Source of the DNA: Ignavibacteriota bacterium | GTDB lineage: Bacteria > Bacteroidota > Ignavibacteria > UBA10030 | Direction: 5' to 3' | Assembly (NCBI GenBank): GCA_963727825.1 | Contig: CAVSHO010000001.1 | Location: forward strand, 404,879 to 468,878 | DNA: 64,000 nt | In this document: piece after piece, positions 14,187-49,939 of the stretch | Numbering within the stretch: the stretch's first letter is position 1 | Layout: each line of letters begins with the position of its first letter | Position numbers and translations under genes: made by a program | Notes under the pieces: model-generated | Seen by the model: the letters and a program-made list of their open reading frames with translations, nothing else | What the model was told of the DNA's origin: nothing | The model's database searches: none

Positions 14187-14254
14187 TTCACTGAGATAAA
14201 ATTTCACATCGCACTAAAACATACTAATTATTAATCTATTAAAGAGGTAAAGCC

Positions 14255-15229: not shown

Positions 15230-15329
15230 AGCAGATTAAGAAAAAAAATCCAAACTCTTTAAGAATATTATGTTGACGTTAACGGACGATGAAAAACAGA
15301 TTTAATCAGAATGAACCGAAGAAGATTTT

Positions 15330-16793: not shown

Positions 16794-17667
16794 ACAAGTT
16801 CCCGATAGAGTCCGAACTGAGATTTCCTCCACTCCAAAGCTTTCTGACGAAACCTTCGCGTTGCTTAGAGATTTTGTTTATTCAAAAACTGGAATCTATT
16901 TCCCAGAAAAAAAGAAGTATCTGATCGAAGGAAGACTTGCAAAACGTTTGCAATTACTTAATATAGCACGTTTTGAAGATTATATTCATCTATTGAAATA
17001 TGGTCAGCAAAGGGAAAGTGAGTTCGAACTCCTGTGTAACACAGTGACGATTAATGAAACTTCTTTCTTTCGAAATGAAGCACAGATGAACGCCTTTCAG
17101 CAAAAACTTGCTGTGGAAATCATTAACGCCAAGAAAACGTTTGGCAAACAAATCCTCAGAATATGGAGCGCAGCGTGTTCTTCCGGTGAGGAACCTTACA
17201 CACTAGCGATCTTATATTTAGAATATCTCAAGCCTCGATATCCCGATCTGCAAATCGAAATTATAGGCACCGATATTAACACGGCAGTGGTCGAAATGGC
17301 ACGGGTCGCAGAATATAGCCATTATGCAATCCGTTCTTTACCAGAGCCATATGTGAAAAAATATTTTAATAATTACAATGGACTCTATCGGCTGCGAACG
17401 GAGGTAAAGGAGCTAGTACGATTTGAATATAATAATTTAATTGACCACCAATCAATGCGGCAAATGGCGCATTTCGATTTCATTTTTTGCTCGAATGTTC
17501 TTATCTATTTTGATTTAAAAGCAAAAATACAAGTGGTCGGAGATTTATACGACAGTCTCAATCGAGGTGGATATCTCTTTATAGGTTCTTCGGAAATGCT
17601 GCACAAGATTTCGAGTGCATTTAAATTGGTGAGTTTTCCGAAAGCCACCGTATATAAAAAGGAGTAA
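16780..17667 (+). CDS. cheR: Chemoreceptor methyltransferase CheR
   Basis: TINETSFFR, IWSAACSSGEEPYTLA, FCSNVLIYFD; start at ATG 16780 after AAGGAG. Confidence 0.95.
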   Translation: MIVFEQVPDRVRTEISSTPKLSDETFALLRDFVYSKTGIYFPEKKKYLIEGRLAKRLQLLNIARFEDYIHLLKYGQQRESEFELLCNTVTINETSFFRNEAQMNAFQQKLAVEIINAKKTFGKQILRIWSAACSSGEEPYTLAILYLEYLKPRYPDLQIEIIGTDINTAVVEMARVAEYSHYAIRSLPEPYVKKYFNNYNGLYRLRTEVKELVRFEYNNLIDHQSMRQMAHFDFIFCSNVLIYFDLKAKIQVVGDLYDSLNRGGYLFIGSSEMLHKISSAFKLVSFPKATVYKKE

Positions 17668-17674
17668 TGTAAGT

Positions 17675-18061
17675 ATGGACAAGGTAGTTTTGGTTGTTGA
17701 TGATTCAGCGACAGTGAGGAAGTTTGTAGCTGCATCGCTGAATATGAAAGGATTCCGAGTGGTTACTGCGGCGGATGGTGTTGAAGCACTGGAACTAATG
17801 CCTGCGGAAAAATTCGATCTTATCATCACAGATCTCAATATGCCCGATATGGATGGATTTGAATTTATCCGTACGCTTCGAGAGACACCGGAAAATTGCG
17901 ACATCCCAATAATTGTCCTTTCTTCAATGACAGATTTGAAAAATAAAGACTATGCGTTAGAGCTTGGAGCGCTCGCGTTCCTTGAAAAACCACTGAGCAC
18001 TGAAGCTATACAACGTGAAGTTTTTCGGTTTGTCAATAAAACAATTCAGCATACGGAATGA
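17675..18061 (+). CDS. CheY-like single-domain response regulator
   Basis: VLVVDDS, ITDLNMP, LEKP. Confidence 0.9.
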   Translation: MDKVVLVVDDSATVRKFVAASLNMKGFRVVTAADGVEALELMPAEKFDLIITDLNMPDMDGFEFIRTLRETPENCDIPIIVLSSMTDLKNKDYALELGALAFLEKPLSTEAIQREVFRFVNKTIQHTE

Positions 18062-18063
18062 GT

Positions 18064-18079
18064 ATAGGAAATTTCCTAT
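18064..18079. promoter_or_regulatory. Perfect 16-bp palindrome, candidate regulator site upstream of cheY
   Basis: ATAGGAAATTTCCTAT equals its own reverse complement; a related TAGGTTAAATCTTA lies at 13544-13557 upstream of cheW. Confidence 0.5.
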
Positions 18080-18206
18080 TAACAAATCGTTCCTTTACTT
18101 ATATCTTTTACGATAGCAAAATAACACTTTGATGTAGAGTTAAAATGAATAGTCTGCGAAGAAAAAGAATAAAACTTAACAATAACACCAAACAAAGGAT
18201 AATGTC

Positions 18207-18599
18207 ATGACATCAATGAAAATCCTAATTGTGGACGATTCGATCACAATACGACGTATTATAACCAATGCGTTGAAAACCGTAGGTTTCCCAGATACTG
18301 TTGAGGCTGTAAATGGGAAAGATGCTCTCGAGAAACTGGCTAATGTCAATGTGGATTTTATTATCACGGACTGGAATATGCCGGAAATGAACGGCCTAGA
18401 TTTTATTAAACAAGTCCGTGCAAATCCGATATACTCATCTTTACCAATTCTGATGATCACCACTCGCGGCACAGAGCATGATGTAATTGAAGCGCTTCAG
18501 GCAAAAGTGAACAGCTACATTGTAAAGCCGTTTACACCGCAGGAACTGAAAGAAAAGATTGAAGGTATTCTCAAAACCGTTCAAGTCAATACGGTGTAG
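18207..18599 (+). CDS. cheY: Chemotaxis response regulator CheY
   Basis: ILIVDDS...ITDWNMPEMNG...PILMITT...YIVKPFTP. Confidence 0.92.
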   Translation: MTSMKILIVDDSITIRRIITNALKTVGFPDTVEAVNGKDALEKLANVNVDFIITDWNMPEMNGLDFIKQVRANPIYSSLPILMITTRGTEHDVIEALQAKVNSYIVKPFTPQELKEKIEGILKTVQVNTV

Positions 18600-18651
18600 A
18601 ACAGATGAATAAATCAATCTCAATACAATTTGTTCTGGAGAGGATAGAGTT

Positions 18652-19395
18652 ATGAACCAAAAGGAACTTGATGGCATCTTGAGAAAAGCCGCCGAATTAA
18701 AGGTGTTTTGCGAGTACGGTCAGCGCACCGTTCCGGTTCTAGATGAGATCTCTTCTTTTGTTAAGGAAATTAGCCCTGCTATTGAAGATCTCAAGGCGGT
18801 TGTAGAGGTGTCGATGGTTAACATTCCCAAAGCAGCAGATCAGCTCGGACGGGTTACACAAGCGACTGAACAGGCATCGACTGACATCTTAAACACTTTA
18901 GATAGAATGGTGGCAACTCTTGACGAAATAATCGGATCGGTTGCCTCGGGTATGACATCTTCAAACCTAGGCGCAGCGACAAAAAAAATGGCAGCAATCG
19001 TAAAATCATTAGTAGATAAATCAGGTTGGGATGAAGATATTGTAAAGCTTGCAGAAGCATGGGACATTCATCTGCAAAGTTTGAGGATGAGCGGTCCAAC
19101 AAGCAACCTTGAACGCTTGTTGAAGGATCTTCAAAGTGATTGCACTGAAATAATGATGGCACTTCAGGTACAGGATATCACTCAGCAGCATATTGGCGCC
19201 GTAATGGGAACTATCCAGGCAGTCGCCGAAGGACTTCGAAAGCTCACAACCGGATTTTTCAGTTCAGGTATGGCAGAGAATCTCCCACCATTGCCCACTA
19301 TGTCGGTTCGATTCGAACAGGAGAATGTTGGCGAAGCGGAAAGGAAAAAAATGGTCGAGTCCTTGTTAAGTAAAGCACGTGCAGGACAACTATAG
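18652..19395 (+). CDS. cheZ: CheZ-like phosphatase (paralogue 1)
   Basis: VTQATEQASTDIL and IMMALQVQDITQQ (catalytic D-x3-Q motif); directly after cheY. Confidence 0.75.
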   Translation: MNQKELDGILRKAAELKVFCEYGQRTVPVLDEISSFVKEISPAIEDLKAVVEVSMVNIPKAADQLGRVTQATEQASTDILNTLDRMVATLDEIIGSVASGMTSSNLGAATKKMAAIVKSLVDKSGWDEDIVKLAEAWDIHLQSLRMSGPTSNLERLLKDLQSDCTEIMMALQVQDITQQHIGAVMGTIQAVAEGLRKLTTGFFSSGMAENLPPLPTMSVRFEQENVGEAERKKMVESLLSKARAGQL

Positions 19396-19464
19396 AAACT
19401 GAAATGTGAAAAACTGAATTAAAGTGAAATTTATTATTCACTTGTATAAGAAAAAGGTGAAAGT

Positions 19465-20073
19465 ATGGCACATGAAGAGATAATTGAAAATGTCGAAGGG
19501 ACAACAGAAAGCGTAATAACTGCGCTGCAGAAGGTTATCACATTACTTGATCGTATTAAGAATGCGATTGAGGAAAGCTCTCGCAAAATTCCCAATGCGG
19601 CAGTCCAGTTAAACGGGGTAACACAAGCAACAGAACTCGCTACAGTGGAAATTCTTGACGTTCTCGATGTGATGGGAACCAAAATTCATATGGTGGAAAA
19701 CGGAATGAAAGAATTCGATCAAGCTGGAATTTCTGAAAAGCAAGTCTTAATGCTCACAGGTATTAAACAGACTCTGGCAGAATTAAAAGAAAATACAAGC
19801 AATATCACGGTTGCTTTGCAGGTGCAGGATATAACGGCACAAAAAATAGGAGCAGCAAATCATTTAATAGAATCTGTCCGTAAAGAATTATTAAGCGAAT
19901 TGAACTTTTTCGAGACAGCTAAACAGAAAACCGACGATGCGCGGCGTAAAGTTGAAGTGGAGATAGAAGGACCTAAAGCATTTGATTTGAATGCATCGTA
20001 TATGAAGACGCCTGAACATCAATCCAAAATTGATGAGGTCGTGACGGCATGGCAGGAAAAAGAAGCAAAGTAA
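19465..20073 (+). CDS. cheZ: CheZ-like phosphatase (paralogue 2)
   Basis: VTQATELATVEIL and ALQVQDITAQ; C-terminal QSKIDEV. Confidence 0.75.
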   Translation: MAHEEIIENVEGTTESVITALQKVITLLDRIKNAIEESSRKIPNAAVQLNGVTQATELATVEILDVLDVMGTKIHMVENGMKEFDQAGISEKQVLMLTGIKQTLAELKENTSNITVALQVQDITAQKIGAANHLIESVRKELLSELNFFETAKQKTDDARRKVEVEIEGPKAFDLNASYMKTPEHQSKIDEVVTAWQEKEAK

Positions 20074-20125
20074 GTGAATGTATTTTTCTTTGCGAGATTG
20101 TATAAAAATGATGGAATGTTAATAA

Positions 20126-21835
20126 ATGGATGATAAACAAGATATAGCTGGTTTTGATGAGGATATGCGAGAGATCTTTGACAGTTATCTTGTCGAATCT
20201 AAAGAAATTCTTGACCATCTCAGTCAAGATCTACTTGTTCTAGAAAAAAAACCTTCTAATACAAATTTATTAAATAATATCTTTCGAGGAGTACACACAC
20301 TCAAAGGCACTTCGTCATTTCTCGGTTTTAACCAGATGACAGAACTGACCCATACTAGTGAAGATTTATTGAACAAACTCCGGAAAGGCGAAATTATTGC
20401 CGATGGTAAAATAATTGATGTGCTGATCGAAGTTCACAATGCAGCGAACGTCCTCCTACACCGAATTGAAAGCCGCGATCTTCAGCCTGTTGAACTGAAT
20501 GGTATTCTTGAGAAATTACGAGGAGCAATGCAACAACAACCTGCTTTAGTGCAGGTTGAAGATGTTGTGCAGGAAAAAAATGAACAGGCACAGCAAGCGG
20601 CTGAAACATTTGAAGTTATGCATCAACGCGCAGCTGATTCGACAATCCGGGTTGACATTGGCCGGCTTGACGATTTAATGAATCTTGTCGGTGAGCTTGT
20701 TCTCGCGCGTAATCGTCTTGCACAGGCGACCCAATCTTTGATAGAAAAATATGAGCGGATTGAAATGTCAAAAAATATTGTTGATGTCAGCAATCAGATT
20801 GATTTTGTAACGACAGAACTTCAGATGGCTGTCATGAAAACGCGAATGGTTCCGATTGAGAAAGTGTTCAGCGGACTACCGCTTGTCGCTAGAGACCTTA
20901 TGCGTACAATAGGTAAAGATGTTGATCTTCAAATTTATGGTCGGGAAACAGAATTAGATAAATCTATAGTTGAAGAATTGAATGATCCGCTTGTCCATAT
21001 GCTCCGCAATGCCATTGATCATGGTATTGAATCACCAGAAGAGAGAACGAAACAGGGAAAACCACAACGAGGAATCGTCGTTGTCAACGCTGAGCGAGAT
21101 GGAAATTATATTCTAATCACAATGGAAGATGATGGACGCGGAATTGATGCTGAGCAAGTTAAACAGAAAGCAATAGAAAAAGGATTAATCGAGGAAGCAC
21201 AGGCACGAGAACTGTCAACATCCGACATTCTCAACTTGTTGTTTATTCCTGGCTTCAGTACGAAGCATGAAATCACAAATGTATCTGGTAGAGGCGTCGG
21301 GATGGATATTGTTAAGACGAATATCGCGAAATTAAAGGGTATTGTGGAAATAGCCTCCGAGGTTGGTAAAGGAACTATTATTACTTTGAAGGTACCGTTA
21401 ACGCTAGCGATTATTCAAGGGCTTCTCATGAAGGTAGTGGACGAAATTTTTGCCGTTCCATTGAGCGCAGTACTGGAGATTATTTGCATCAGACCTAATG
21501 AAATATACACTATTCAAGGGCGGGAAGTAATACGCGTCAGGGACGTTATATTGCCGCTTGCAAGGATGTCCGATATTATTGGCAACTCAAAAGCTATGAA
21601 AGCATCGGAAGTTTCGTATGTTGTTGTAGTCGGTTGGGCAGAGAAGCGTATTGGTCTTCTGGTTGATTCTCTCAGGGGACAAAAAGAGATTGTTATTAAA
21701 GGGTTAGGCAATTATCTGGGTGATGTTCCTGGAATTGCCGGGTCCACCATCCTCGGAGATGGAAGTGTTATTTTAGTAATCGATGTTGGTCAGTTTATCG
21801 AATTGTTTGCACGCCATTTTGGAAAAGTAGCATAA
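20126..21835 (+). CDS. cheA: Chemotaxis histidine kinase CheA (no obvious P2 domain)
   Basis: Hpt IFRGVHTLKG; dimerisation RLDDLMNLVGELV; HMLRNAIDHGIE; SGRGVGMDIV; C-terminal CheW-like P5. Confidence 0.96.
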   Translation: MDDKQDIAGFDEDMREIFDSYLVESKEILDHLSQDLLVLEKKPSNTNLLNNIFRGVHTLKGTSSFLGFNQMTELTHTSEDLLNKLRKGEIIADGKIIDVLIEVHNAANVLLHRIESRDLQPVELNGILEKLRGAMQQQPALVQVEDVVQEKNEQAQQAAETFEVMHQRAADSTIRVDIGRLDDLMNLVGELVLARNRLAQATQSLIEKYERIEMSKNIVDVSNQIDFVTTELQMAVMKTRMVPIEKVFSGLPLVARDLMRTIGKDVDLQIYGRETELDKSIVEELNDPLVHMLRNAIDHGIESPEERTKQGKPQRGIVVVNAERDGNYILITMEDDGRGIDAEQVKQKAIEKGLIEEAQARELSTSDILNLLFIPGFSTKHEITNVSGRGVGMDIVKTNIAKLKGIVEIASEVGKGTIITLKVPLTLAIIQGLLMKVVDEIFAVPLSAVLEIICIRPNEIYTIQGREVIRVRDVILPLARMSDIIGNSKAMKASEVSYVVVVGWAEKRIGLLVDSLRGQKEIVIKGLGNYLGDVPGIAGSTILGDGSVILVIDVGQFIELFARHFGKVA

Positions 21836-21848
21836 TAATGAATTTGTC

Positions 21849-22988
21849 ATGAAACAATCCGAAGAAAACATTATAAAAGTAATCGTCATTGATGATTCTG
21901 CATTTATGAGGAAATCATTAACGCTTATGTTGGAATCGGACCGAGAAATCCGTGTCATTGCTACTGCCCGGGATGGAAGTGAGGGAATAGAGAAGATTAG
22001 TAAATTGAAGCCCGACATAGTTACATTAGATATTGAAATGCCTGGTATGGATGGCATCACCGCTTTAAAAATTATTATGGAACAAATGCCGTTGCCGGTG
22101 CTCATGGTCAGCTCGTTAACGACAGAGAGCGCGCAAGCTACAATGCAGGCATTTGAATTAGGAGCAGTTGACTTCATTTCAAAAGATTTGGCATCTATCT
22201 CGACGAATATCAAGTATATCAAAGGCGAACTTATAGATAAGATAAAACAAATTGCACGAAGCCGTTTAATCCAAACACGATTCCGAATGAGACGGCTTGT
22301 GCAATCATCGCGTGAAAGAAAAGGTCAAATTGCATCACCATCTAAAATTGTCTCTTTCGAAAGTGTGGCACCAGGTTTTCAAGCTGTTGTTGTCGGAATA
22401 TCAACAGGTGGACCTGAAGCTTTACACAATCTAATTCCAAAAATTCCGGAGCAGTTCCCTATCGGTATGACAATAGTACAACATATGCCCCCTCATTTTA
22501 CAAAATCGCTGGCAGATAGACTGAATAATATAAGCAAAGTCAATGTAAGGGAAGCGGAACAAGGGGAAGTTGTTGAACCTGGAAAAGTACTAATTGCGCC
22601 CGGTGGAAAGCATTTGACGTTTCGCAATGATGGTCCAAATGTAGTAACGGAAATTTCTGATGAACCTATTAACGCATTATATCGGCCTTCTGCAGATATA
22701 ATGATGAAATCTGCTTGTGTAACATTTCATGGACCGCTGCTCGGCATCATTATGACTGGAATGGGAAGAGATGGCGTTGAAGGATTAAAATGCATTAAAT
22801 CAAAGGGTGGATATGTAATTGCTCAAGATGAAGAAAGCTGTGTTGTATATGGTATGCCTCAGGCGGCACTTGATGAAGGTGTTGTTGATTCTATGATGCC
22901 ACTCGAGAATATTTCTCTGGCATTTAGCCGGTTGATAAAATTAAGAGCACAAGAATACCTGCCTATGGGCAGGGAAGAGGGTATATGA
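21849..22988 (+). CDS. cheB: Methylesterase response regulator CheB
   Basis: REC (LDIEMP) plus GISTGGP, QHMP, MTGMGRDG and VYGMP. Confidence 0.96.
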   Translation: MKQSEENIIKVIVIDDSAFMRKSLTLMLESDREIRVIATARDGSEGIEKISKLKPDIVTLDIEMPGMDGITALKIIMEQMPLPVLMVSSLTTESAQATMQAFELGAVDFISKDLASISTNIKYIKGELIDKIKQIARSRLIQTRFRMRRLVQSSRERKGQIASPSKIVSFESVAPGFQAVVVGISTGGPEALHNLIPKIPEQFPIGMTIVQHMPPHFTKSLADRLNNISKVNVREAEQGEVVEPGKVLIAPGGKHLTFRNDGPNVVTEISDEPINALYRPSADIMMKSACVTFHGPLLGIIMTGMGRDGVEGLKCIKSKGGYVIAQDEESCVVYGMPQAALDEGVVDSMMPLENISLAFSRLIKLRAQEYLPMGREEGI

Positions 22989-24455
22989 TTGAATATACCG
23001 TTAATGAAAATTTGAATATTGCTTTCGGTGGGTCGGATGCCAAACGCGTTTCCGATAAGCAGAATAGCAAATCATTCATGCGCCTATTAGAGAATAACGA
23101 CCAGTGTTCAAAATCAAATGACTCTTTTTCAGAGAGCACAGACGGTAAGTTGATGCCAATGATGAACATTCAAGGTGCATTCCGTGCACTAGAACAATTA
23201 GCGTTGCACCGTCAAGAAACAAAACAACTCGCTGAACAAATTATTAAAGTTTATACCGAAATGCTTCGAGTTGATGGTGCTTGCATATACAAATACACAA
23301 CCGAAAATAAACTTGAGATACTGGCTTGTAATAATACTTGGTCAAATATATTCTCTTCTCTGCAAGCAGCGGAAAAAGTCGATGATCAAAATCTCCTTTT
23401 ATCCACAGATGTTTTATTGCCTTATCACGTGAACCTAAACATAAGAGAGATAGACCAATCGCCGAAAGCAGTGCCATTATTCTTGGGAACACGTAATTAT
23501 GGTTCTATCTTATCCTTACCACTGGTATGCGATGGAACGACGATTGGAGTTATATCGTTATTCAGTATCAATTCGCAATTCTTTTTGCCAGAGCATATCA
23601 ACGAACTTCGAATGATTGCCTATCTATCTGCTTTACTTTATATGAACATTCATATGAAGAGTATTCTAGAAAAAGAACAGATTGAACGAATAACTCTTCA
23701 AAATGATGTTCGGATGTTACATGAGCAATTAGAGTCTCATCAACATAATCTTAACACTTATGAAGGAGCCGGTTCAGCTTATGAAGAATTGGAAGCATTG
23801 TCGTATTCGGTTTCTCATGATTTACGTTCACCAATAATTGCAGTGCGGAACAATTGCGAATGGTTGAGTACACGGGCATGCAGCAAACCTCGACACGGAA
23901 GGGCAATCACTTGTTCGGCAAATTGCCGCAAGCTCTGAGCACATGGAAAAGCTTCTTGATGGATTCCTGGATTTCTCAAAAGTTGTTCGACTCGAGCTGC
24001 GACAATCACAGATTGACATGACGACTCTTGTGCATACAGTTATCGATGAATTGTTGAAATGTGAATGCGGATCATCTTCTCTTTCAATAGCTGTCCGACC
24101 CCTACTGCCTGCATATGGCGATGCAACACTGATACGACAAGTATGGTACAATCTTCTTTCGAATGCATTTAAATATACGCGCTATAAACAAATACGAGAA
24201 GTGACCATTGATTCATTTTCGTTCAACGGTGGCGTGAAATATTGCGTGAGTGATAACGGGGTCGGATTTGATATGCAATATGTTAACCGCCTTTTCGGTG
24301 CATTTCACAGACTGCACGCTGCCGAAGAATTTGAAGGAACGGGAGTTGGTTTGGCTATTGTCCAACGGATTGTTAGAAGACACGGTGGACAGGTTTGGGC
24401 TGAAGGCAAAGTGGATAATGGTGCTAAGTTCTATTTTACACTTCCAAAAACATAG
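22985..24455 (+). CDS. GAF-domain HisKA histidine kinase, split by a +1 frameshift (probably an artefact)
   Basis: GAF plus H-box SYSVSHDLRSP in 22985-23938; HATPase (NLLSNAFKY, DNGVGFD, GTGVGLAIV) in 23943-24455. Deleting one G of GGG at 23874-23876 restores RHAANLDTEGQSLVRQIAASSEHME. Confidence 0.88.
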
Positions 24456-24488: not shown

Positions 24489-26783
24489 ATGACACACCAA
24501 GATGGAAATTTAAATATTCTGATGCTGGAAGATATTCCGATTGATGCTGAAATGATCGAGAGGGAACTCCAGAACGCAAACATTTTGTACAACGCGCGAC
24601 GGGTAGCTTCTAAGAATAAGTTCATAAAAGAACTTGAAATGTCTTACCCAGATTTAGTGCTCGCAGATTATTCACTGCCTCAGTTTAGCGGTTTGGAAGC
24701 ATTGAAGATGGTCCGTGAAATGAAAAAAAGAATTCCATTTATCCTTGTCACAGGAATGAAGAATGAAGAAATAGCCGTCGAATGCCTTAAGGAAGGTGCC
24801 GATGATTATATCCTGAAGTCAAGTCTCCGTCGGTTACCGGGCGCAATTCAAAATGCACTCGAAAAACAGAGAGCAGAACAGGAGAATGAGCGGCTTGAGG
24901 AGGAACTCAGGCGATCTCAGAAACAGATGCTCACCATCTTTGAGAGTATCACGGATGCATTTTTTTCCGTAAACAAGTCTTGGTATGTGATGTATTTAAA
25001 CCCACGGTCCGATACATTTCTTGCGAAAGTGAATAAGAGACGTGAAGACCTCTGGGGAAAGAATTGGTGGACTGAATTTCCTGCTGCGAGAGATTCGGTA
25101 GCATATAAGGCTTTACATCGAGCGATGGCAGCCCATGAATTTGCTGAATTTGAAGAGTACAACTCTGCACTAAATTCATGGTTGCAAGTTCGGGCATACC
25201 CAGCAGAAGATGGACTTGCTATTTATATGCAAGATATCTCTGAACGTAAAATAGCAGAGGAAAAAATTAGAGAGCAAGCGAATTTACTGGATATCGCACA
25301 AGATGCGATTATTGTTCGTGATCTTAACGATAATATCATCTATTGGAATAATAGCGCTGAGAGAATCTATGGATGGAAGCAAGAAGAAGCAATTTTAAAA
25401 AATGCTTCTCAATTGTTAAGCACAGAATTAGACAGTATTGAACGTGCGTTGCAAGATGTTAAAAAGAAGGGATCGTGGTTTGGTGAATTGCACCAAGTGA
25501 CCAAGATGCAAAAGAGTGTTATTGTCGAAAGCAGATGGAGTATTGTTCGAGATGGGCAAGGAAAGCCAAAGTCAATTCTTACCATCAATACAGACATCAC
25601 AGATAAAAAGAATATCGAACAGCAGTTTCTTCGAGCGCAACGTTTAGAGAGCGTGGGTACACTGGCAAGCGGTCTTTTACATGATTTAAATAATGTCCTA
25701 ACGCCAATAATTTTAGCTGTTCCCTTTATGCGAGAAAAATTAACAGATGAACCAAGTCAAGATATCTTAAGAACGCTGGAAAGCTCCGCAAAACGAGGTG
25801 AAGGAGTTGTAAGACAACTAATATCGTTCGTCCGGGGGGTTAAAGGCGAACGTGTTGTGCTTCAACTGAAACATCTTGTTAGGGAATTGTTAAATTTCAT
25901 TGCGGAAACGTTCCCGCCAATAATAAAAGTGGTGAAACATTGTCCGAAAGGTATTTGGTACGTCGTAGGAGATTCAACTCAATTATATCAGGTATTGATG
26001 AATCTTTCGATCAATGCTCGTGATGCAATGCCCAATGGCGGAACACTCGCAATTGAATTACAGAACATTACACTCAGTGAACAAGAGGCAGGTTTACACC
26101 TTGGGGCCACACCCGGAATGTATGTTATTTTAACTGTGAAAGATACTGGCAGTGGCATTCCACCAGAAATAATCAATCGAATATTCGACCCATTTTTCAC
26201 AACAAAGGAACCAGGTAAAGGAACTGGTTTAGGTCTCTCGTCAGCGTTAAGTATTGTAAAAAGCCATGGTGGTTTCATTGATGTTCATAGCGAGGTGGGA
26301 AAAGGAACAGAGTTTAAGGTCTTCCTTCCTGCCAATGAAGAAACAATGGAGGAACAGGTTGAACAAAGCTACACTATCCCGATGGGCAATGGTGAAACTA
26401 TTCTTATTGTGGATGATGAAAAAAACCTGCGTGATCTTTTACGATCGACACTCGAAAAACAGAACTTTAAAGTATTATCTGCGTATGATGGAGAAAATGC
26501 AATTGCTGTATATAAAGAAAATCAAGATAAGATTGATATTGTATTGATGGACATGCTGATGCCTAAACTAAGTGGGCTATCGGCAATTCCTGAGCTCAAG
26601 CAAATGAATCCGCAATTAAAAATAATTGGTATGACAGGAAGCATGTTGGACAACCCGCGCAGTGAAATGAAAACGTTAATGCAAGAATTACCTTTTATTC
26701 AAAAGCCTTTTAGTTGTGAGGATATAATCAAAATGGTGAACAATGTACTGTTTGAAGCTCCAAAGGCCTACATAGAGGAATGA
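24489..26783 (+). CDS. Hybrid kinase REC-PAS-PAS-HisKA-HATPase-REC
   Basis: N-terminal REC; two PAS domains; LASGLLHDLNN; FDPFFTTKEPGKGTGLGL; C-terminal REC. Confidence 0.93.
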   Translation: MTHQDGNLNILMLEDIPIDAEMIERELQNANILYNARRVASKNKFIKELEMSYPDLVLADYSLPQFSGLEALKMVREMKKRIPFILVTGMKNEEIAVECLKEGADDYILKSSLRRLPGAIQNALEKQRAEQENERLEEELRRSQKQMLTIFESITDAFFSVNKSWYVMYLNPRSDTFLAKVNKRREDLWGKNWWTEFPAARDSVAYKALHRAMAAHEFAEFEEYNSALNSWLQVRAYPAEDGLAIYMQDISERKIAEEKIREQANLLDIAQDAIIVRDLNDNIIYWNNSAERIYGWKQEEAILKNASQLLSTELDSIERALQDVKKKGSWFGELHQVTKMQKSVIVESRWSIVRDGQGKPKSILTINTDITDKKNIEQQFLRAQRLESVGTLASGLLHDLNNVLTPIILAVPFMREKLTDEPSQDILRTLESSAKRGEGVVRQLISFVRGVKGERVVLQLKHLVRELLNFIAETFPPIIKVVKHCPKGIWYVVGDSTQLYQVLMNLSINARDAMPNGGTLAIELQNITLSEQEAGLHLGATPGMYVILTVKDTGSGIPPEIINRIFDPFFTTKEPGKGTGLGLSSALSIVKSHGGFIDVHSEVGKGTEFKVFLPANEETMEEQVEQSYTIPMGNGETILIVDDEKNLRDLLRSTLEKQNFKVLSAYDGENAIAVYKENQDKIDIVLMDMLMPKLSGLSAIPELKQMNPQLKIIGMTGSMLDNPRSEMKTLMQELPFIQKPFSCEDIIKMVNNVLFEAPKAYIEE

Positions 26784-26840
26784 TTTATACATTTAGTGAA
26801 ATGCTGTTTGTACTTCGGTTCGATAATGAGATAAAATATT

Positions 26841-28439
26841 ATGGCTACTGTTAAGACAATTTGGGATCAAAAAAGAATCGGTGTAATTCGGAAGGTTACA
26901 ACCTCAACTGCGACTGTTGCACTTGATTCGCAATTATCAAGTCTTTCAGTACAATTGAATGGGAAATCATACCCTATTGGACAGATAGGTACCTATGTGC
27001 TTGTACCGGTTGGCAGACAAGTTTTACTTGGCATGGTAGCAGAATTCAAAAAGTTCGAATATGGCGAAAATGGGAAAACAAAATCTCATTATGAAATGAT
27101 AATTTCTCTTATTGGATCTGTAAAGAACGGTATTTTTGAACGTGGTGTTTCCACTTTTCCAACAGCAGAAACGCCGGTGTATATTCTTGAAGAAAAGGAT
27201 CTTGCTGTTGCTTTTTCAGTGTTTCAGCGGTTCGGGTTTTCGACTGGCAGACTTTCACTCTTTGAAAACGAACGAGCCTATGTTGATCCAAATCGATTTT
27301 TTGGAAAGCACCTTGCAGTGATTGGAACAAGTGGCTCCGGTAAGTCGTGCACTGTTGCTTCAATTCTTCAAAAAGTGGTGGGCTTCCCTGACACGAAGGT
27401 TATCATTTTAGACATACACAATGAATATCGAAAAGCTTTTCCAAAAAACAGTCAGTATCTAAATCTGACGGAACTCGAGTTGCCATTCTGGCTAATGACT
27501 TTTCAAGAAATGATGGAAGTGTTCGTTAATCCTTCAGATGAACACGCTGCAACTCATATTACCGTTTTAAAAGAGCTCGTATTTCAAGCAAAACGCTTGC
27601 AAAATCCGGAATTAAAAAACGTCTTGACTATCGATACACCTGTATACTACGATTTCGAAAAAGTCCGTTCGAAAATAGAGGCACTTGATTCTGAAAAAAA
27701 CGGTCCCTTTTACGGAAAGTTTGCCAGATTCTTAGTACAACTGGATACTAAATTGAATGACCCGCGTTACGACTTCATGTTTAAACCCAGACAATTTATT
27801 CACTCTGCTTCTTTTTCGGAATTACTGACAAAAATGTTTGGACCTAATGGGGGCGCGAAGATTACGATAATGGACATGAGTGGCGTTCCCTTCGACATCG
27901 TGAACACTGTTGTTTCTCTTATGGCGAGATTAGCATTTGATTTTAATTTTTGGAATATTAGCCGTCGTGAATGTCCTATCCTTTTAGTCTTTGAAGAAGC
28001 ACATAACTATTTATCAACAAGTACAGAAGGAACACAAGCGGCCAGGCGCACCGTTGAACGTATCGCAAAAGAAGGCAGAAAATACGGTGTAAGTTGTATG
28101 ATCGTAAGCCAGAGGCCCTCTGATATTTCAGAAACTATTTTGTCTCAATGTAATAACTTTGTAGTAATGCGTCTCACAAATCCGGTGGATCAGAATTATG
28201 TTTGTCGGCTCGTTGCAGATACATATCCCGGTCTTGAAAGCCTTCTACCATCGCTTCGGCAGGGAGAGGGATTATTTGTTGGTGATGCTGTTCCTATGCC
28301 CTTACGTATTCAAATTGATCCGCCAGATCCTGAACCGGCAAGCGCCGATATACAATTTTTTGATAAATGGAAACGTAAGAATGAACCGACAAATGTTAGT
28401 GAAATAGTCAGAAGATGGTGGCACCAAGAGCGTTGTTAA
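26841..28439 (+). CDS. HerA/DUF87-family (HerA-FtsK superfamily) ATPase with N-terminal HAS-barrel-like domain
   Basis: KHLAVIGTSGSGKS Walker A, ILDIHNEY, LVFEEAHNY Walker B, RIAKEGRKYG, SQRPSDISETILSQC, RLTNPVDQ. Confidence 0.92.
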   Translation: MATVKTIWDQKRIGVIRKVTTSTATVALDSQLSSLSVQLNGKSYPIGQIGTYVLVPVGRQVLLGMVAEFKKFEYGENGKTKSHYEMIISLIGSVKNGIFERGVSTFPTAETPVYILEEKDLAVAFSVFQRFGFSTGRLSLFENERAYVDPNRFFGKHLAVIGTSGSGKSCTVASILQKVVGFPDTKVIILDIHNEYRKAFPKNSQYLNLTELELPFWLMTFQEMMEVFVNPSDEHAATHITVLKELVFQAKRLQNPELKNVLTIDTPVYYDFEKVRSKIEALDSEKNGPFYGKFARFLVQLDTKLNDPRYDFMFKPRQFIHSASFSELLTKMFGPNGGAKITIMDMSGVPFDIVNTVVSLMARLAFDFNFWNISRRECPILLVFEEAHNYLSTSTEGTQAARRTVERIAKEGRKYGVSCMIVSQRPSDISETILSQCNNFVVMRLTNPVDQNYVCRLVADTYPGLESLLPSLRQGEGLFVGDAVPMPLRIQIDPPDPEPASADIQFFDKWKRKNEPTNVSEIVRRWWHQERC

Positions 28440-28535
28440 TGTGAACAATAATGTACTTTGCAGAAACTGAACAATTGTAGAATTCATAAATTATCGACGT
28501 GGTAACAATATTATCAACAATATTGTGTAAAAATT

Positions 28536-29801
28536 GTGATTGACCGACAAGTAATGGCTACAACACCGAATGCATCAGAAGAAATTCGAATGGAAGCCAA
28601 CCATATCTTAAAAGTGGTTGATCAAGCCATAAAAGCAGGATTTCTAAATGAGGCAAAAGAGCATCTTGATAAAGCAAAGATGATTGATCCGACCAATGCA
28701 TACATTTATGCATTCCAGGAGCGAATCGCCTTCCTGAAAGAGGAAGCAGAAAAGAAAAAAGCTGCAGTATCTAACCGTGGAGCGATGGAGGATGCAGCAC
28801 GAGCAAAACTCGATGCAGATCGTCGGTTAGCAGAAGAGGACCGGTTAAAAAAAGAAGATGCGCAGGTGAAACAACTAGAAGAGTGGCATCTGAAAAAACT
28901 CGAAGCGGAGAAACGGCACCAGGAAGAATTGATACGGGCTACTAAAGGACAAACAACATCTAACGCAACTCCTGCTTCAGATGCCCCGGAACAGCATAAA
29001 AAAACTGAGGGTGTACAGAAGGGAAAATCGGTACCACAGCAAAGACTTGTACCAACAACGACACAGCAGAATGAACCGGCGACTAAAGTGGGCGATCAAG
29101 CCCACGATATGTACAAACGAGTGTTGCTGCTTGCTTGGGCAGATGGTGCGATCTCACCGGAAGAGGAGAGTCAACTCAGGGATTTAAGAACATCACTCCG
29201 TATTACAATGGAGGAACATACACAACTTGAGTTAGAAGCCAAGGAAGAATCCTATGCACATGCATTCACACTTGTTTGGACTTCCGGTATGAATGCGAGG
29301 GAGCGTTCAGCTGTCATTAATGAACTCCGACAAAAGTATCATATTTCATCCGAAGCACATTCAAGAGTCGAAGCAAATGTTCTCATGGAATTTGGTGATC
29401 GTCAGAATAAGCCAACGCTCTATGTTATTGATGACGACGAGAATACGCTTGGGATGATCGTGCGAGTACTTGAAGCTGGTGGATTTGCTGTAAAGGCTTT
29501 CAATACGTCTGATGAAGCACTTGTCGGACTTAAAAGTGATTTGCCTGATTTAATCATCTCTGATATCAATCTTGAAACTTCAACAATTGGAGGATTTTCG
29601 TTCTATGAAAAAGTCCGACAATTGCATCATCTAAGTCACGTACCGTTCATTTTTCTAAGTGGAATGATTGATGAGGGTATGATACGATATGGGAAAGGTT
29701 TAGGGGCAGATGATTATCTGACAAAACCGTTTTCCGGTGAAATGCTTCTCGATACTATCAAAGGGAAATTAAAACGCTATAAACAGCTAAAAAACAATTA
29801 G
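28536..29801 (+). CDS. TPR-like/coiled-coil/TerB-like/receiver fusion protein
   Basis: EAKEHLDKAKMIDPTN (TPR-like); charged coil; AWADGAISPEEESQLRDLR (TerB-like); C-terminal REC (YVIDDD, SDINL, YLTKP). Start is GTG 28536 or ATG 28554. Confidence 0.75.
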   Translation: MIDRQVMATTPNASEEIRMEANHILKVVDQAIKAGFLNEAKEHLDKAKMIDPTNAYIYAFQERIAFLKEEAEKKKAAVSNRGAMEDAARAKLDADRRLAEEDRLKKEDAQVKQLEEWHLKKLEAEKRHQEELIRATKGQTTSNATPASDAPEQHKKTEGVQKGKSVPQQRLVPTTTQQNEPATKVGDQAHDMYKRVLLLAWADGAISPEEESQLRDLRTSLRITMEEHTQLELEAKEESYAHAFTLVWTSGMNARERSAVINELRQKYHISSEAHSRVEANVLMEFGDRQNKPTLYVIDDDENTLGMIVRVLEAGGFAVKAFNTSDEALVGLKSDLPDLIISDINLETSTIGGFSFYEKVRQLHHLSHVPFIFLSGMIDEGMIRYGKGLGADDYLTKPFSGEMLLDTIKGKLKRYKQLKNN

Positions 29802-29850: not shown

Positions 29851-31491
29851 ATGATTGAAAAACTTAGAAAATCTTTAGAAACCAGAATGATCGCCTCTTT
29901 TCTCGTACCATTATTGGCTATATCCATCTGCGGAGTCATTATTACTTGGATTAATCAGGAGTCGGCAGGACGGGAAGCGATAAATAACAATGCTCGAGTG
30001 ATTTCGGAAACCATTTCCTTTGCTGCCGGTGCGGGATTGAATGACGGCAATTTCGACCTTGTACAAACATCCTTCGATTGGGCAAGAAAAGATCCCGCTG
30101 TTATATTTATTTTAATTTTAGACGAATCCAACCAAACGATTATTGAACATAATCCTAGAAACTTGAAATACAATGCAACAACACTTATGCAAGAATTAAA
30201 ATTTGAAGATACAAAAGATATCGTGCTAGTGTCACGTCCTGTCGAATATAAGGGGAAAAAGCTGGGAACAACGCTTGTTGGTTTATCGATGGAATCTGTA
30301 ATGTCGGTAATTATGAGACAAATCTTGGTCGAATTGGTTATATTTTTCGTCTTCGTAGTATTAGGAACATGGTGGGTTGTTCGATACACACGAAGTTTGG
30401 TCAGTGACATAAAGATGATACAAAAAAATATTGAAAACGCAGATCTTAACACACAGATAAATTCAGAACGGCAAGACGAAATGGGTCAGCTTCAACATTC
30501 CTTCGATCAATTTGTAGAGTCTATTCGGGACACATTGATTCAAGTATCGGAAACGGCGTCTTCCGTTGCGAGCGCAAGTGCCGAGATAAGCTCGAGCACA
30601 GAAGAGATGGCAGCTGGTTCTCAAGAACAGACCACGCAATCGGAGGAAATAGCAAGGGCGGTTGAGCAAATGGCCAAAAGCATCGCCGTGAATTCAGAGA
30701 ATGCCGGGGAAACTGCACATACTGCAGAGCAAGCTAAAATCGCTGCAGAACAAGGTGGAAAGGTCGTTACAGACACGGTCGCCGAAATGAAACAAATTGC
30801 GAATGTTGTACGAGAATCTGCAGGGACAATTCAAAATCTTGGCAAATCAAGCGACGAAATTGGCGAGATAATTGGCGTAATCGAACATATTGCCGACCAG
30901 ACAAACTTGTTAGCACTTAATGCGGCTATCGAAGCGGCGAGGGCGGGTGAGCAAGGTCGCGGATTTGCAGTGGTTGCCGACGAAGTGAGGAAATTGGCAG
31001 AACAAACTACGAAAGCAACAAAACAAATAGCCGGCATGATTCAACAAATTCAATCAGATAGCCATGGTGCTGTTAGCTCAATGGCAAATGCGACAAAGCA
31101 GGTGGATGCAGGGATTGTGTTAGCGGATCAGGCTGGAGCATCGCTGCAGGAGATCGTTAAGACTTCGCAAAAGGTTACAGACATGGTTACACAAATTGCA
31201 GTTGCAAACGAAGAGCAGTCAAGCACCAGTGAACAAATCAGCAAAAACATGGAAGCCATTGCCACGGTTACTCAACAAACAGCTTCAGGGACTCAACAAA
31301 TTGCTCGTGCAGCGGAAGATCTGAATCGATTGACAGAAACTCTTCAACAACTTGTCAATCAGTTCAAATTAACATCACAAAAGGAACATGATACATTTTC
31401 ATCATCTTCTCAGAAATCATTTGAATTGAAACCACGATCGAAATATGCTCTTGGCGAGAATTCGTCGTTGCCGACTAATCAAAAGAATTAA
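29851..31491 (+). CDS. Methyl-accepting chemotaxis protein
   Basis: Two TM segments, HAMP-like QDEMGQL, hairpin [38 protein letters not shown]. Confidence 0.96.
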
Positions 31492-36138: not shown

Positions 36139-37473
36139 ATGCAAACATCTAGTACAAATGAATATCGAGTAACGATTCGCGACAAGTCTGGCAATATCAC
36201 ACGGCGACAAATTGTTGCGACATCAACAGCCCATGCAAAAAAACGTGCAACCGCTTTTATTCAGCAGGGCAGCATAATTCAATCCATAAAGCAAAAGGTC
36301 ACGTATCGATATCGAGTTTTACAGGGTAAAAATATCATAGAAGGATCTCAAAGTGCCTATTCACGGGAAGAGGTTGTTCTTGGTCTTCAACGCTTGGGAT
36401 TCAAAATTAAATCGGTACAAAGACGCACAAATTTTTTTATAAAAGCTCCAGCTAGTGAAATAGTAGGCTTCATTAAGCAATCCGCAAAGCTAATCGAGCA
36501 GAAGCTTCCTTTTAATGATGTCCTCCAATTAATGGCAAACCATATAAAGGAAAAGAACCTCCGTGGTGCTTTACACGAAATTATTAATGACCTGCGAAAT
36601 GGAATAGATTCACAAGAAGCTTTTATACGTCAAGCACCTGTGTTTGGATATCATACGAGCCTCATGCTGGGAATCGCGACCAAGAGCGGTAACATAGAAC
36701 AAGTATTTGAAAGTGTGGCACAGCTGGTGGAACGACAAGCGGATTTTAAAAAAGGATTGACCAGTTCTCTTATGCTTCCAGCTGTTACAGCAATCACAAT
36801 GGTTGGAGCGATTGGATTCTATGTGGTATATCTTTTGCCTCAAATGATGGAGATGTTGGGGCCCAACATGGAAGAAATTCCACCATTGACTGCGATGACA
36901 TTGGGAGTAAGTGATTGGCTTAAAGAATATTATATATATATAGCTGCCCTTATCTTTGTCGTCTCGCTTATTTTCTATTTATACATAACTTCTACACAAG
37001 GACGCTTGAAGTATCATCAATTTCTCATTCGCGTTCCATATATTGGCCGAATTCTGCGTGATACAAGCACCGAAATCTTTTGTCGGGTGTTTGGAATTAT
37101 GTATGCCTCCTCAGGCGAGAACATTGATGCGATTCAAATTGCCGGAGATACTTGTGGTAATCCGTATTTGGCTTATCAGATCCGGAATGTGGCAGTTCCA
37201 CATATGTTGCGGTTTGGAGTGGAACTCGGAAAAGCGATAGAAGAAACGGGATTCTTCCCCGAGTTGGTTACATCGCGATTCAAAACTGGTGCGGAGACTG
37301 GCAACGTCAAAGCGACAGCAATGCAACTTGCTGATTATTATCAAATGGAAAACGGATACGCCATGAAAAATTTGGCAAATGTTATTGAAATGGCAGTGAC
37401 AGTGATGATTACAATCTCACTTGTTTTTCTTACACTTCTTTCAACAGAAACAGCGAATGTGCATCTTAAATGA
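36139..37473 (+). CDS. pilC: Type IV pilus/T2SS platform protein (PilC/GspF family)
   Basis: Two T2SSF repeats (SGNIEQVF, GAETGNV...LADYY), LLPQM, IPPLT, RVPYIG. Confidence 0.88.
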   Translation: MQTSSTNEYRVTIRDKSGNITRRQIVATSTAHAKKRATAFIQQGSIIQSIKQKVTYRYRVLQGKNIIEGSQSAYSREEVVLGLQRLGFKIKSVQRRTNFFIKAPASEIVGFIKQSAKLIEQKLPFNDVLQLMANHIKEKNLRGALHEIINDLRNGIDSQEAFIRQAPVFGYHTSLMLGIATKSGNIEQVFESVAQLVERQADFKKGLTSSLMLPAVTAITMVGAIGFYVVYLLPQMMEMLGPNMEEIPPLTAMTLGVSDWLKEYYIYIAALIFVVSLIFYLYITSTQGRLKYHQFLIRVPYIGRILRDTSTEIFCRVFGIMYASSGENIDAIQIAGDTCGNPYLAYQIRNVAVPHMLRFGVELGKAIEETGFFPELVTSRFKTGAETGNVKATAMQLADYYQMENGYAMKNLANVIEMAVTVMITISLVFLTLLSTETANVHLK

Positions 37474-37535
37474 AGATAACAACGATATGTTCTTGAGTAA
37501 AGATTAGTCATCATCCATCGACGAGAGCAAGTAAT

Positions 37536-39380
37536 ATGATGAATTCAATGGGATCCGAGACGACGAGTAGTTTTAAAAAACGCGACCTTGGTGATATCCT
37601 AGTAGAAAAAGGGATTGTCACTCCTGAAATTTTATCTGAAGCAATTAAGACCATGAGCGGAGATACTCAAAAACAAAGACGAAACCTCCCATGGATCCTA
37701 TGTAACACGTTTAATGTAGATCGTGAACTACTGTATATGGAGGTTGCTAAGTTTTACGCATTTCGCATCTTGGATATTTCCAAAACAAAGCTCGAGGATA
37801 GTCATCTCGCATTTATCCGACGTGAGTTCAATGCACTCCCAGATTCAATAAAAGATAAGGCTATTGACCACAGTGTGTTGCCATATTCAGTTGATCCGAA
37901 TCGGTTGGATCGTCTCCTTATTGCAACGCCGGATCCTACCGGTGCGGGGGCTGTGTCCGTTGCACGCGCATTTCGCTATGGCAAATTCGAGATTTGTTAT
38001 ATGCCCTTTTCGCAGTGGAACGATCTGTGGAAACGTGTTGCGATCGATCGATCATCCTATCAGCAGCATTTAGATGAGTCAAGTTATCTGCAGGATGAAA
38101 CTGAAGAGGAAGCAGAACAATACGAACAAGCCCTGGAAGATGAAATTAGCAAAAGCGGACTTGTCGAGCTCGTTGAAAAAATATTTGTTGATGGTGTTCG
38201 TGTCGGTGCGAGCGATATCCATGTAATTCCACGAGGTGAAAAGGTTACGGAATTTCACTTTCGAGTCGATGGAAAACTTTCGCTCTGGTATACCTACACC
38301 GATGCACGCGCAGAAGCTGTGTCCGCTGTAGTGAAGGATCGAGCAAAAAACCTCGATCGTTTTGAGCGGAATGTCGCTCAGGATGGATTTGCCCAAATTA
38401 TAATTGACCGAAAAGCCGTTCGCTATCGACTTTCAGTAATTCCAATAGTGGGAAAGGAACTGAAAAGCAGATATGAATCGATTGTAATCAGAATACTGCA
38501 AGAACCAAATCTTAGTATCCGCATCGAAGAACTTGGGTTTGAACCATATGCTGAACAAGCACTTCGCAACGCTCTATCAAAACCCCATGGAATCGTCATT
38601 GTGACAGGTCCGACGGGCAGCGGTAAAAGCACGACACTCGTTGCTGCGCTGAGGACGATCATGAACCCATCTGTCAATATAATGACCGTTGAAGATCCGG
38701 TGGAATATTTAATTGAGGGTGGTCGTCAGGTAAAACTTAACCCGAAACTCGATTTCGAAGGAGCACTACGAGCCATACTTCGTCACGATCCAGATATTAT
38801 TATGGTAGGCGAGATACGTGACCGCATCACTGCTGATATTGCTATCAAGTTTGCAAACACCGGCCACCTGACTTTATCGACACTGCACACGAACGATGCC
38901 CCGAGCGCCATCTCGCGTCTCTTCAAGATGGGAGTGGAGCCATTCCTGATCGGCTATGCGATCAATCTTATCCTTGCGCAGCGTCTCGTACGCAAACTTT
39001 GTCCAAAATGTAAGGCGGTCATCGATGAAATAGATATGGAAGCTCTCCGAAAACTCGGAATCGATCCTGACGATTTAAAACAAACTAAGATCTACCGTCC
39101 TATGGGTTGCGGAGATTGTGTGCATGGGTACAAAGGCCGGATGGCCATACACGAAGCTTTATATTTCTATAAAAATATCAGACAGCTCATTCTTAGATCG
39201 GATCAATTAGTGGATGAAGATGCATTGCGAGTTCTTGCGGCAAAAAACGGAATGCAGACACTAAGACACTCGGCGATAGAATTAATGAAGAAAGGTATCA
39301 CCTCTATAGAAGAGGTCGCCACTGTGACTATGGAAGACGAGTCTCAGATTGTTTCAACATATCTTGATGTTAATAATTAA
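37536..39380 (+). CDS. pilB: Type IV pilus/T2SS assembly ATPase (PilB/GspE family)
   Basis: MshEN-like LGDILVEKG; ASDIH; GPTGSGKSTT; EDPVEY; LRHDPDIIMVGEIRD; TGHLTLSTLHTND; tetra-Cys. Confidence 0.93.
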   Translation: MMNSMGSETTSSFKKRDLGDILVEKGIVTPEILSEAIKTMSGDTQKQRRNLPWILCNTFNVDRELLYMEVAKFYAFRILDISKTKLEDSHLAFIRREFNALPDSIKDKAIDHSVLPYSVDPNRLDRLLIATPDPTGAGAVSVARAFRYGKFEICYMPFSQWNDLWKRVAIDRSSYQQHLDESSYLQDETEEEAEQYEQALEDEISKSGLVELVEKIFVDGVRVGASDIHVIPRGEKVTEFHFRVDGKLSLWYTYTDARAEAVSAVVKDRAKNLDRFERNVAQDGFAQIIIDRKAVRYRLSVIPIVGKELKSRYESIVIRILQEPNLSIRIEELGFEPYAEQALRNALSKPHGIVIVTGPTGSGKSTTLVAALRTIMNPSVNIMTVEDPVEYLIEGGRQVKLNPKLDFEGALRAILRHDPDIIMVGEIRDRITADIAIKFANTGHLTLSTLHTNDAPSAISRLFKMGVEPFLIGYAINLILAQRLVRKLCPKCKAVIDEIDMEALRKLGIDPDDLKQTKIYRPMGCGDCVHGYKGRMAIHEALYFYKNIRQLILRSDQLVDEDALRVLAAKNGMQTLRHSAIELMKKGITSIEEVATVTMEDESQIVSTYLDVNN

Positions 39381-47345: not shown

Positions 47346-49939
<2,594 letters not shown>

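Follow-up and report, generated by a model that had tools for sequence, protein, structure and literature searches.

A defence-type HerA ATPase flanked by histidine kinase and receiver protein genes in Ignavibacteria, and its possible domestication in phospho-signalling

Introduction

What does a HerA-type ATPase do in a chemosensory gene cluster? The question arises from a 64,000-nucleotide stretch of the genome of an Ignavibacteriota bacterium (NCBI GenBank assembly GCA_963727825.1, contig CAVSHO010000001.1, positions 404,879 to 468,878 of the forward strand), referred to here as the window, in which a complete herA gene stands between the genes for a hybrid histidine kinase and a receiver-domain protein, downstream of a che cluster. 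HerA is currently understood as a motor or platform that serves nucleases and NADases in DNA repair and phage defence, its usual partners being the nuclease NurA (DNA end resection) or effectors such as Sir2 and DUF4297 (anti-phage). An earlier note on this DNA had called the gene an orphan and suggested that it might have been co-opted by a chemosensory pathway.

Comparison of the locus with its relatives points to an answer to which we assign a probability of about one half: the gene may encode a catalytically intact defence-type HerA that was domesticated as an accessory of phospho-signalling and gates signalling enzymes instead of a nuclease or NADase. The simplest way to read the comparative data is that the lineage retained the platform and swapped its partner for phospho-signalling enzymes. 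The adjacency of HerA and signalling enzymes is conserved and has been re-created repeatedly. New here are the kinase-linked HerA paralogues, the gene triad attached to che genes, the way in which the locus behaves when genes are rearranged, and the kinase-HerA pairs that Alphaproteobacteria have independently. A literature search that had supplements outside its scope found no description of HerA with a histidine kinase, a PP2C phosphatase or che genes (in PMC7159879, HerA is present merely in the reference list), in keeping with the earlier remark that no described system with this arrangement was known to its author.

Results

A complete defence-type HerA follows a hybrid kinase

The herA reading frame is uninterrupted and codes for a complete ATPase of 532 residues (P0001; coordinates of the features are collected in Table 1). 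Its match to the Pfam family DUF87, ‘Helicase HerA, central domain’ (PF01935), has an E-value of 1.9e-35 and 123.4 bits against a cut-off of 23.2, and HerA_C is matched with 22.6 bits, barely above its cut-off of 22. Residues 162–169 read GTSGSGKS and residues 381–388 read LLVFEEAH, which correspond to the Walker A and Walker B motifs; G167, K168, S169, E386, Q424, R425, P426 and R444 are unchanged across 24 aligned HerA sequences. The predicted domain plan comprises an N-terminal HAS-barrel-like region, a RecA-like core and a HerA_C region. The PADLOC HerA model PDLC04105 is matched over its full length (E 7.5e-147), residues 7–531 falling on model positions 6–574 of 576 with the N-terminus included. 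Among solved chains in the PDB compared by sequence, the best matches are to 9c1m (8.8e-95), 8ziq (2.6e-93) and 8xau (2.5e-89), presumably all DUF4297-HerA entries, and to 8wiv (2.4e-76). The Sulfolobus HerA chain 4d2i is matched far more weakly (7.6e-30) than these defence HerA chains. Chain 8wiv is the HerA of a Paenibacillus SIR2-HerA system, according to excerpts of PMC11472057. By sequence, the window protein is a defence-type HerA, and assembly into a hexameric ring would be expected from family membership.

Open reading frame (ORF) coordinates, Pfam matches and motifs bear out the earlier description of the gene as intact, co-oriented with the hybrid kinase gene that ends 57 bp before it, and followed by a receiver protein and a methyl-accepting chemotaxis protein (MCP). 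No terminator was called inside the 57-bp spacer by a terminator scan. The likelier start of the 421-residue receiver protein (P0002) is the ATG at 28554, which is the conserved start in the alignment, and the gap between HerA and the receiver protein is about 96–114 bp. Across the window, consensus scans were uninformative: promoter-like sites numbered 69 where 51.5 were expected, and terminator-like sites 14 where the expectation was 14.9. One run of a peat metatranscriptome contained 0.06 of the sampled words, and its contigs came from relatives, mostly at <95% identity; among them, a 1086-nt contig bridges the 3′ end of a relative’s kinase gene and the 5′ part of its herA across a different spacer, a weak hint of co-transcription in that a contig is not a single transcript and may derive from DNA in the library.

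The gene is under purifying selection. Against three orthologues, window HerA has a non-synonymous divergence (dN) of 0.08–0.10, the lowest of the four neighboring genes compared, and a ratio to synonymous divergence (dN/dS) of ~0.035 with dS saturated. The most diverged part between paralogue types is the N-terminal 130 residues, which constitute the HAS region and are 39–48% identical, versus 63–75% in the core.

The earlier claim that the locus is free of mobile-element scars holds close to the gene: GC content at the HerA locus is 0.389–0.413 versus ~0.40 in the surroundings, the flanking repeats are merely 14–20 nt long and at chance level, and an Rfam scan of the window gave zero matches and hence zero tRNA genes. 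It needs qualification farther away, where an IS30-like transposase gene (HTH_38 and rve domains) occupies 12266–13261, 13.6 kb upstream of HerA and between a LuxR-type regulator gene and cheW; it is the sole mobile-element gene that we noticed in the signalling neighborhood.

Kinase, HerA and receiver protein form the conserved unit

We inspected 43 loci of the Ignavibacteria HerA clade, one of which (L043) is cut at the gene start. In the orthologues of window HerA, here called the window type, the kinase lies 5′ and the receiver protein 3′ of HerA in 7/7 loci from two genera (the window, L027, L028, L032, L039, L114 and L127); the kinase orthologue was identified by Pfam in L027, L028, L039, L114 and L127 and by alignment in L032. 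The triad lies downstream of cheB wherever this was inspected, and an MCP gene follows the receiver gene also in L027, L028 and L127. In L114, which belongs to another genus (g20) and whose HerA is 77% identical, the triad again follows cheB, with GalT in place of the MCP. Because GalT replaces the MCP there, the conserved unit is kinase-HerA-receiver and not HerA plus the che core. Thus, of the earlier proposal that HerA is a component of a chemosensory pathway, the link to kinase and receiver stands as a conserved rather than accidental arrangement, whereas the che core and MCP fall outside the conserved unit.

The window type (83–97% identity) is present in 14 of the 16 genomes of the genus, the window genome included; it is split in one (G002) and was not found in another (G007). 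In the split copy (L127; G002:C3:914000-933900, 9900-11496), HerA consists of two ORFs of 211 and 339 residues, and the upstream kinase is devoid of the N-terminal receiver domain.

Three HerA paralogues each follow a signalling enzyme

The window genome (completeness 96.82%) was searched for further HerA copies and for the partner families. It contains three HerA paralogues of 532–535 residues, and the label ‘orphan’ therefore does not apply to the window gene. Each paralogue directly follows a gene for a signalling enzyme: window HerA is preceded by the hybrid kinase; a 410-residue sensor-PP2C phosphatase precedes the copy on contig 11 (L006; 59% identical to window HerA); and the copy on contig 10 (L007) comes after a REC-HisKA-HATPase kinase that has a HAMP-GAF hybrid kinase in front of it. 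HATPase_c scores above its cut-off in ~45 of roughly 2,700 genes of this genome, and tblastn with the PP2C partner gave 8 pieces at 7 places, making chance pairing of all three paralogues with such enzymes unlikely. All three HerA types recur across the genus.

Established HerA partners were missing from the neighborhood, as the earlier note had said of the window. By Pfam, the adjacent genes include no NurA, SIR2-like NADase or Cap4-like (DUF4297) nuclease, and neither mre11 nor rad50 was among the neighbor genes scanned. Genome-wide, NurA (PF09376) gave 0 matches, with the control positive in 7/14 genomes, and SIR2_2 (PF13289) gave 0 matches, with the control positive in 1/14; PF14130 (Cap4/DUF4297 nuclease) also gave 0 matches, but its control was silent everywhere. 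PADLOC had no match for either the receiver protein or PP2C, and for the kinase gave weak receiver-domain matches alone.

Phosphatase-linked copies are basal in the Ignavibacteria clade

A quick IQ-TREE phylogeny (LG+G4) of 90 rows, with three truncated rows of <480 residues left out, places the Ignavibacteria/Bacteroidota HerA rows in one clade with support 99. Within this clade, the PP2C-linked rows are basal and paraphyletic, and the window type (5 rows, support 100) and a third, REC-kinase type are nested in a derived clade (98). By its position in the tree, the window type is a younger duplicate, the youngest of the three paralogues.

In the basal type, the PP2C gene adjoins HerA in 23/27 loci (at L116 and L021 it was identified by tblastn). 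Thus, a check of homologous neighborhoods for che linkage, as the earlier note had suggested, recovers the position after cheB for the window type, and for the phylum a basal partner that is a sensor-PP2C. Three basal loci of family f17 have the order MutS-HerA-PP2C, in which the partner is swapped yet still adjacent. Around basal HerA, a HAMP adenylate/guanylate cyclase with an Mcp40H-20/Tll0287-like sensor flanks the gene at L023, L040, L041, L116, L117 and L121–L123, located either upstream of PP2C or downstream of HerA; in three of the four basal loci that have no PP2C, the HAMP cyclase adjoins HerA. In two distant families, mutS is found at a distance of one to three genes from PP2C-HerA (L118–L120 in f17; L006, L024, L025, L029, L030 and L033), perhaps because synteny is conserved or because the pair is connected with DNA metabolism.

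In the third type, a REC-kinase gene is upstream of HerA in L007, L031 (the same as L037) and L038. The third-type locus of genus g20 (L115) runs HisKA_3 kinase, LuxR, three small ORFs, HerA, PilC, PilB, receiver, REC-hybrid kinase and REC-kinase, with 3 bp between HerA and pilC-pilB. In the window genome this g20-like block is broken: HerA remains with two kinases (L007), and PilC and PilB are found in the window. One could read this arrangement as a sign that HerA is an accessory motor of a nearby type IV pilus or secretion apparatus, as its superfamily is related to VirB4/FtsK-type secretion ATPases and PilC/PilB genes lie 7.7 kb downstream of HerA in the window as well. We consider such a role very improbable: the HerA-pilC junction occurs in 1/43 inspected loci, the paralogue of the window genome that is orthologous to the g20 copy is on a different contig from pilC/pilB, and the window copy does not adjoin them.

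Relatives outside the phylum are linked to SIR2 or to small kinases

Among 60 inspected loci from other phyla (30–40% identity), a SIR2_2 gene is directly upstream of HerA in 16, and the same holds for L124–L126. The tree places SIR2-linked clades next to the Ignavibacteria clade, with gammaproteobacterial copies that have no partner nested among them. The possibility, raised beforehand, that homologues usually lie next to sir2 thus describes the nearest relatives outside the phylum and not the Ignavibacteria clade itself. The partner-less gammaproteobacterial copies (L052, L058, L059, L061–L065, L069, L095, L104, L105, L112 and L113, from Methylococcaceae, Sedimenticolaceae and Chromatiaceae) look as if a defence HerA had been domesticated a second time, separately.

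These relatives raise the question of whether the window gene is still part of a defence system, namely a cryptic anti-phage abortive-infection module in which the adjoining phosphatase or kinase replaces SIR2 or DUF4297 as effector or trigger relay, possibly shutting down motility or pili on infection. The strength of the PADLOC match fits this view, as do the closest solved chains, which are HerAs of two-gene defence systems (SIR2-HerA for 8wiv, presumably DUF4297-HerA for the others), and the SIR2_2 genes upstream in sister clades. So do the patchy distribution of the family, the loss or decay of the window type in G007 and G002, and the fact that the partner gene shares the upstream position of SIR2 and has a similar size (340–410 residues). 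Inheritance, however, is vertical and syntenic across genus and family, composition is not anomalous and flanking repeats are absent, PADLOC finds no defence genes among the neighbors, each genome has three stable paralogues, and dN is very low, unlike that of fast-evolving defence genes. On balance, we regard a surviving defence function as unlikely.

In Alphaproteobacteria, whose HerA clade is separate from that of Ignavibacteria, an orthologous small HisKA-HATPase kinase gene is directly upstream of HerA, sometimes overlapping its start, in 6/18 loci. In an even sample of this class, HerA was found in 21/151 genomes and the kinase was upstream in 6/22 loci, one of them the query’s own locus. 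In total, there are eleven distinct alphaproteobacterial kinase-HerA loci. At L072 (5439–7980), L108 (2596–5213) and L128–L134 (Hyphomicrobiales, Kiloniellaceae and Micropepsaceae), the stop codon of a sensor-less kinase gene overlaps or abuts the HerA start.

These pairs bear on another explanation, in which HerA is an autonomous DNA translocase or helicase with a housekeeping role in DNA repair, segregation or uptake, and its signalling neighbors are the product of gene-order drift in a signalling-rich genome. The ATPase, helicase and DNA-pumping activities of the HerA family, described in excerpts of PMC11472057 and PMC12198126, would suit such a role. So would the position of MutS one to three genes from PP2C-HerA in families f1 and f17, the RmuC and RecG genes that flank L026, the UvrB gene that flanks L095, the gammaproteobacterial relatives with no obvious partner and the Ignavibacteria copies that have no signalling neighbor. 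Nevertheless, the signalling adjacency is seen in each of three paralogue types and again in another phylum, and it outlasts rearrangements, as in the PP2C swap of f17 and the retention of HerA with kinases after the pil cluster broke. We think it improbable that an autonomous DNA role accounts for this pattern.

Partner proteins and complex prediction

The receiver protein P0002 has a helical or coiled-coil segment (residues 11–138), a variable disordered linker, a five-helix domain (182–286) and a receiver domain (293–421), as delineated by alignment and by a model with a mean predicted local distance difference test score of 71.5. The acceptor aspartate of the receiver domain is in ‘ISDINL’, and the receiver fold matches 3nhm with a Z score of 14.7. 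The sequence of residues 182–286 looks TerB-like, but this domain stays unassigned: receiver domains took up the results of the fold search, and the Atlas leads were of TPR type, at ≤0.90. The genome contains at least five paralogues of P0002, two of them ≤2 kb from kinase genes, and P0002 is therefore probably the cognate regulator of the hybrid kinase, with HerA inserted between the two.

The 410-residue PP2C partner has a C-terminal SpoIIE/PP2C domain by Pfam, which gave no match for the N-terminal 184 residues. Its predicted structure suggests an alpha/beta sensor-like domain, a long helix and a PP2C domain like those of RsbU, RssB and SiaA, the Foldseek matches being mostly due to the PP2C domain. 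The order of secondary-structure elements in the sensor-like part would fit a GAF domain. A 426-residue protein encoded downstream of PP2C-linked HerA was considered as a relative of P0002 and rejected by alignment: it lacks a receiver domain and carries a signal peptide as well as a membrane helix at its C-terminus. Complex prediction with HerA and kinase residues 380–764 gave a score of 0.00 in a run without controls and weighs neither way.

Other features of the window

The genes around HerA are listed in Table 1. Within the che core, the two CheZ-like genes form a tandem pair at 18652–20073 after the two CheY genes, each with a weak match (E about 1e-8). A kinase gene that was split or suffered a frameshift could account for the two ORFs that follow cheB and precede the hybrid kinase gene; in the related locus L028, a single 273-residue HisKA-HATPase ORF is present at this position. 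Farther downstream, a gene for a Fur-family regulator is followed by a 726-residue catalase-peroxidase-like gene with two peroxidase stretches (47346–49939), where GC content is 0.523 versus ~0.40 elsewhere; this stretch may have been acquired by transfer.

Table 1 Features of the HerA locus, in window coordinates
Feature	Position	Strand	Basis or remark
che core: CheW, periplasmic binding protein, HEAT-repeat protein, CheR, two CheY, two CheZ-like, CheA, CheB	13632..22988	+	Pfam
GAF+HisKA ORF (317 aa) and HATPase_c ORF (170 aa)	22985..24455	+	Different frames, 4 nt apart; between cheB and hybrid kinase
Hybrid histidine kinase, 764 aa, REC-PAS-PAS-HisKA-HATPase_c-REC	24489..26783	+	Pfam; immediately 5′ of HerA
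Kinase-HerA intergenic spacer, 57 bp	26784..26840	+	ORF coordinates
HerA-type (DUF87) ring ATPase P0001, 532 aa	26841..28439	+	Pfam, PADLOC, PDB sequence matches
Response regulator P0002, 421 aa, without known output domain	28536..29801	+	GTG start; C-terminal receiver E 6e-17
Methyl-accepting chemotaxis protein, 546 aa, HAMP and MCPsignal (7.9e-56)	29851..31491	+	Pfam
Periplasmic sugar-binding-type protein, 330 aa	31609..32601	+	Pfam
PilC-like (T2SSF) and PilB-like (T2SSE) genes	36139..39380	+	Pfam; 7.7 kb downstream of HerA

Discussion

In the window and its orthologous loci, HerA sits between a kinase and a receiver protein and has no neighbor of the kinds with which HerA is known to work. 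How does this arrangement relate to described systems? DUF4297-HerA resembles it in the closest solved chains by sequence, in protein length class and in having the partner gene directly upstream; by contrast, window HerA adjoins a histidine kinase on one side and a receiver protein on the other, a Cap4-like nuclease is absent there, and the chromosomal locus is syntenic and passed on vertically. Similarity to SIR2-HerA extends to the sister clades with SIR2_2 directly upstream and to the match with 8wiv, whereas the window genome has neither a SIR2_2 match nor an adjoining NADase and the setting is not one of defence. HerA-NurA shares the superfamily and the domain plan, but the match to 4d2i marks it as far more distant than the defence HerAs, and NurA has 0 matches in the genome. 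The PP2C-HerA pair of Ignavibacteria is similar in that a paralogous HerA has a signalling enzyme directly upstream; the window differs in its upstream hybrid kinase, in the receiver protein that follows and in the attached che cluster. Finally, unlike mobile defence islands, window-type loci share the same context in 7/7 cases, with flat GC content, no flanking repeats and neighbor families unrelated to defence.

A hexameric ring P-loop ATPase that gates histidine kinases would have a counterpart in KaiC, which acts in this way with SasA and CikA. The comparison is one of analogy only: KaiC comes from another P-loop lineage (RecA/DnaB-like, with a double domain), and we do not claim homology to HerA.

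How might HerA have come to serve phospho-signalling? We propose that a basal HerA copy was paired with the sensor-PP2C and that later duplicates, including that of the window, were placed beside histidine kinases. In defence systems, according to excerpts of PMC11472057, PMC12198126 and PMC13434337, SIR2 and DUF4297 bind the ring of HerA at its HAS face, and both enzymes become active once the complex has assembled; the DUF4297 partner binds the HAS domains of adjacent HerA subunits (excerpt of PMC12198126). The HAS region is also the part in which the paralogue types of the window genome differ most. By analogy with the docking in defence systems, the HerA ring could bind a signalling enzyme, which in the window would be the kinase, the receiver protein or both, and gate its activity in an ATP-dependent manner. 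An extra input, for example nucleotide or DNA status, would thereby be fed into the phosphorelay. The parts of this scheme that we infer are the binding between HerA and its partner, the way in which information flows and the signal that the ring perceives.

Several observations weigh against domestication in phospho-signalling. First, some loci do not fit: the derived-clade rows L026, L036, L045 and L047 and the basal loci L018, L040, L041 and L117 (4/27) have neither an adjoining kinase nor an adjoining PP2C. Second, the family is patchy in the class, with matches at E≤1e-60 in 18/121 genomes, and the window-type copy is dispensable in some species, as its split state in G002 and its absence among the hits in G007 indicate. 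Third, signalling genes are abundant and clustered in this genome, which inflates chance adjacency, and the receiver protein comes from a multi-copy family, so its proximity to HerA weighs less. Fourth, MutS near PP2C-HerA in two families also fits a DNA-related role. Finally, the kinase next to window-type HerA and the one next to third-type HerA have closer paralogues than each other, and the kinase-HerA pair was thus not duplicated as a unit; for the same reason, kinase adjacency arose more than once or partners were exchanged.

More broadly, and tentatively, HerA rings may be a recurrent and so far undescribed class of partners of phospho-signalling enzymes. In Ignavibacteria these enzymes would be sensor-PP2Cs and histidine kinases; in Alphaproteobacteria, they would be small histidine kinases. 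Docking and activation of the kind seen in defence systems would then gate a kinase or phosphatase, and a DNA- or nucleotide-sensing motor could feed into chemotaxis or pilus behavior, for example by changing motility or piliation upon encounter with foreign DNA or DNA damage.

If HerA instead proves to belong to a defence module wired to a phosphorelay, that would represent a new effector logic for HerA systems. If the domestication of HerA in phospho-signalling is correct, the locus would offer a testable entry to an additional input of a chemosensory or two-component pathway in a little-studied phylum. Kinases and phosphatases would also become a new class of HerA partners, and the lineage would hint at how defence machinery is domesticated into signalling.

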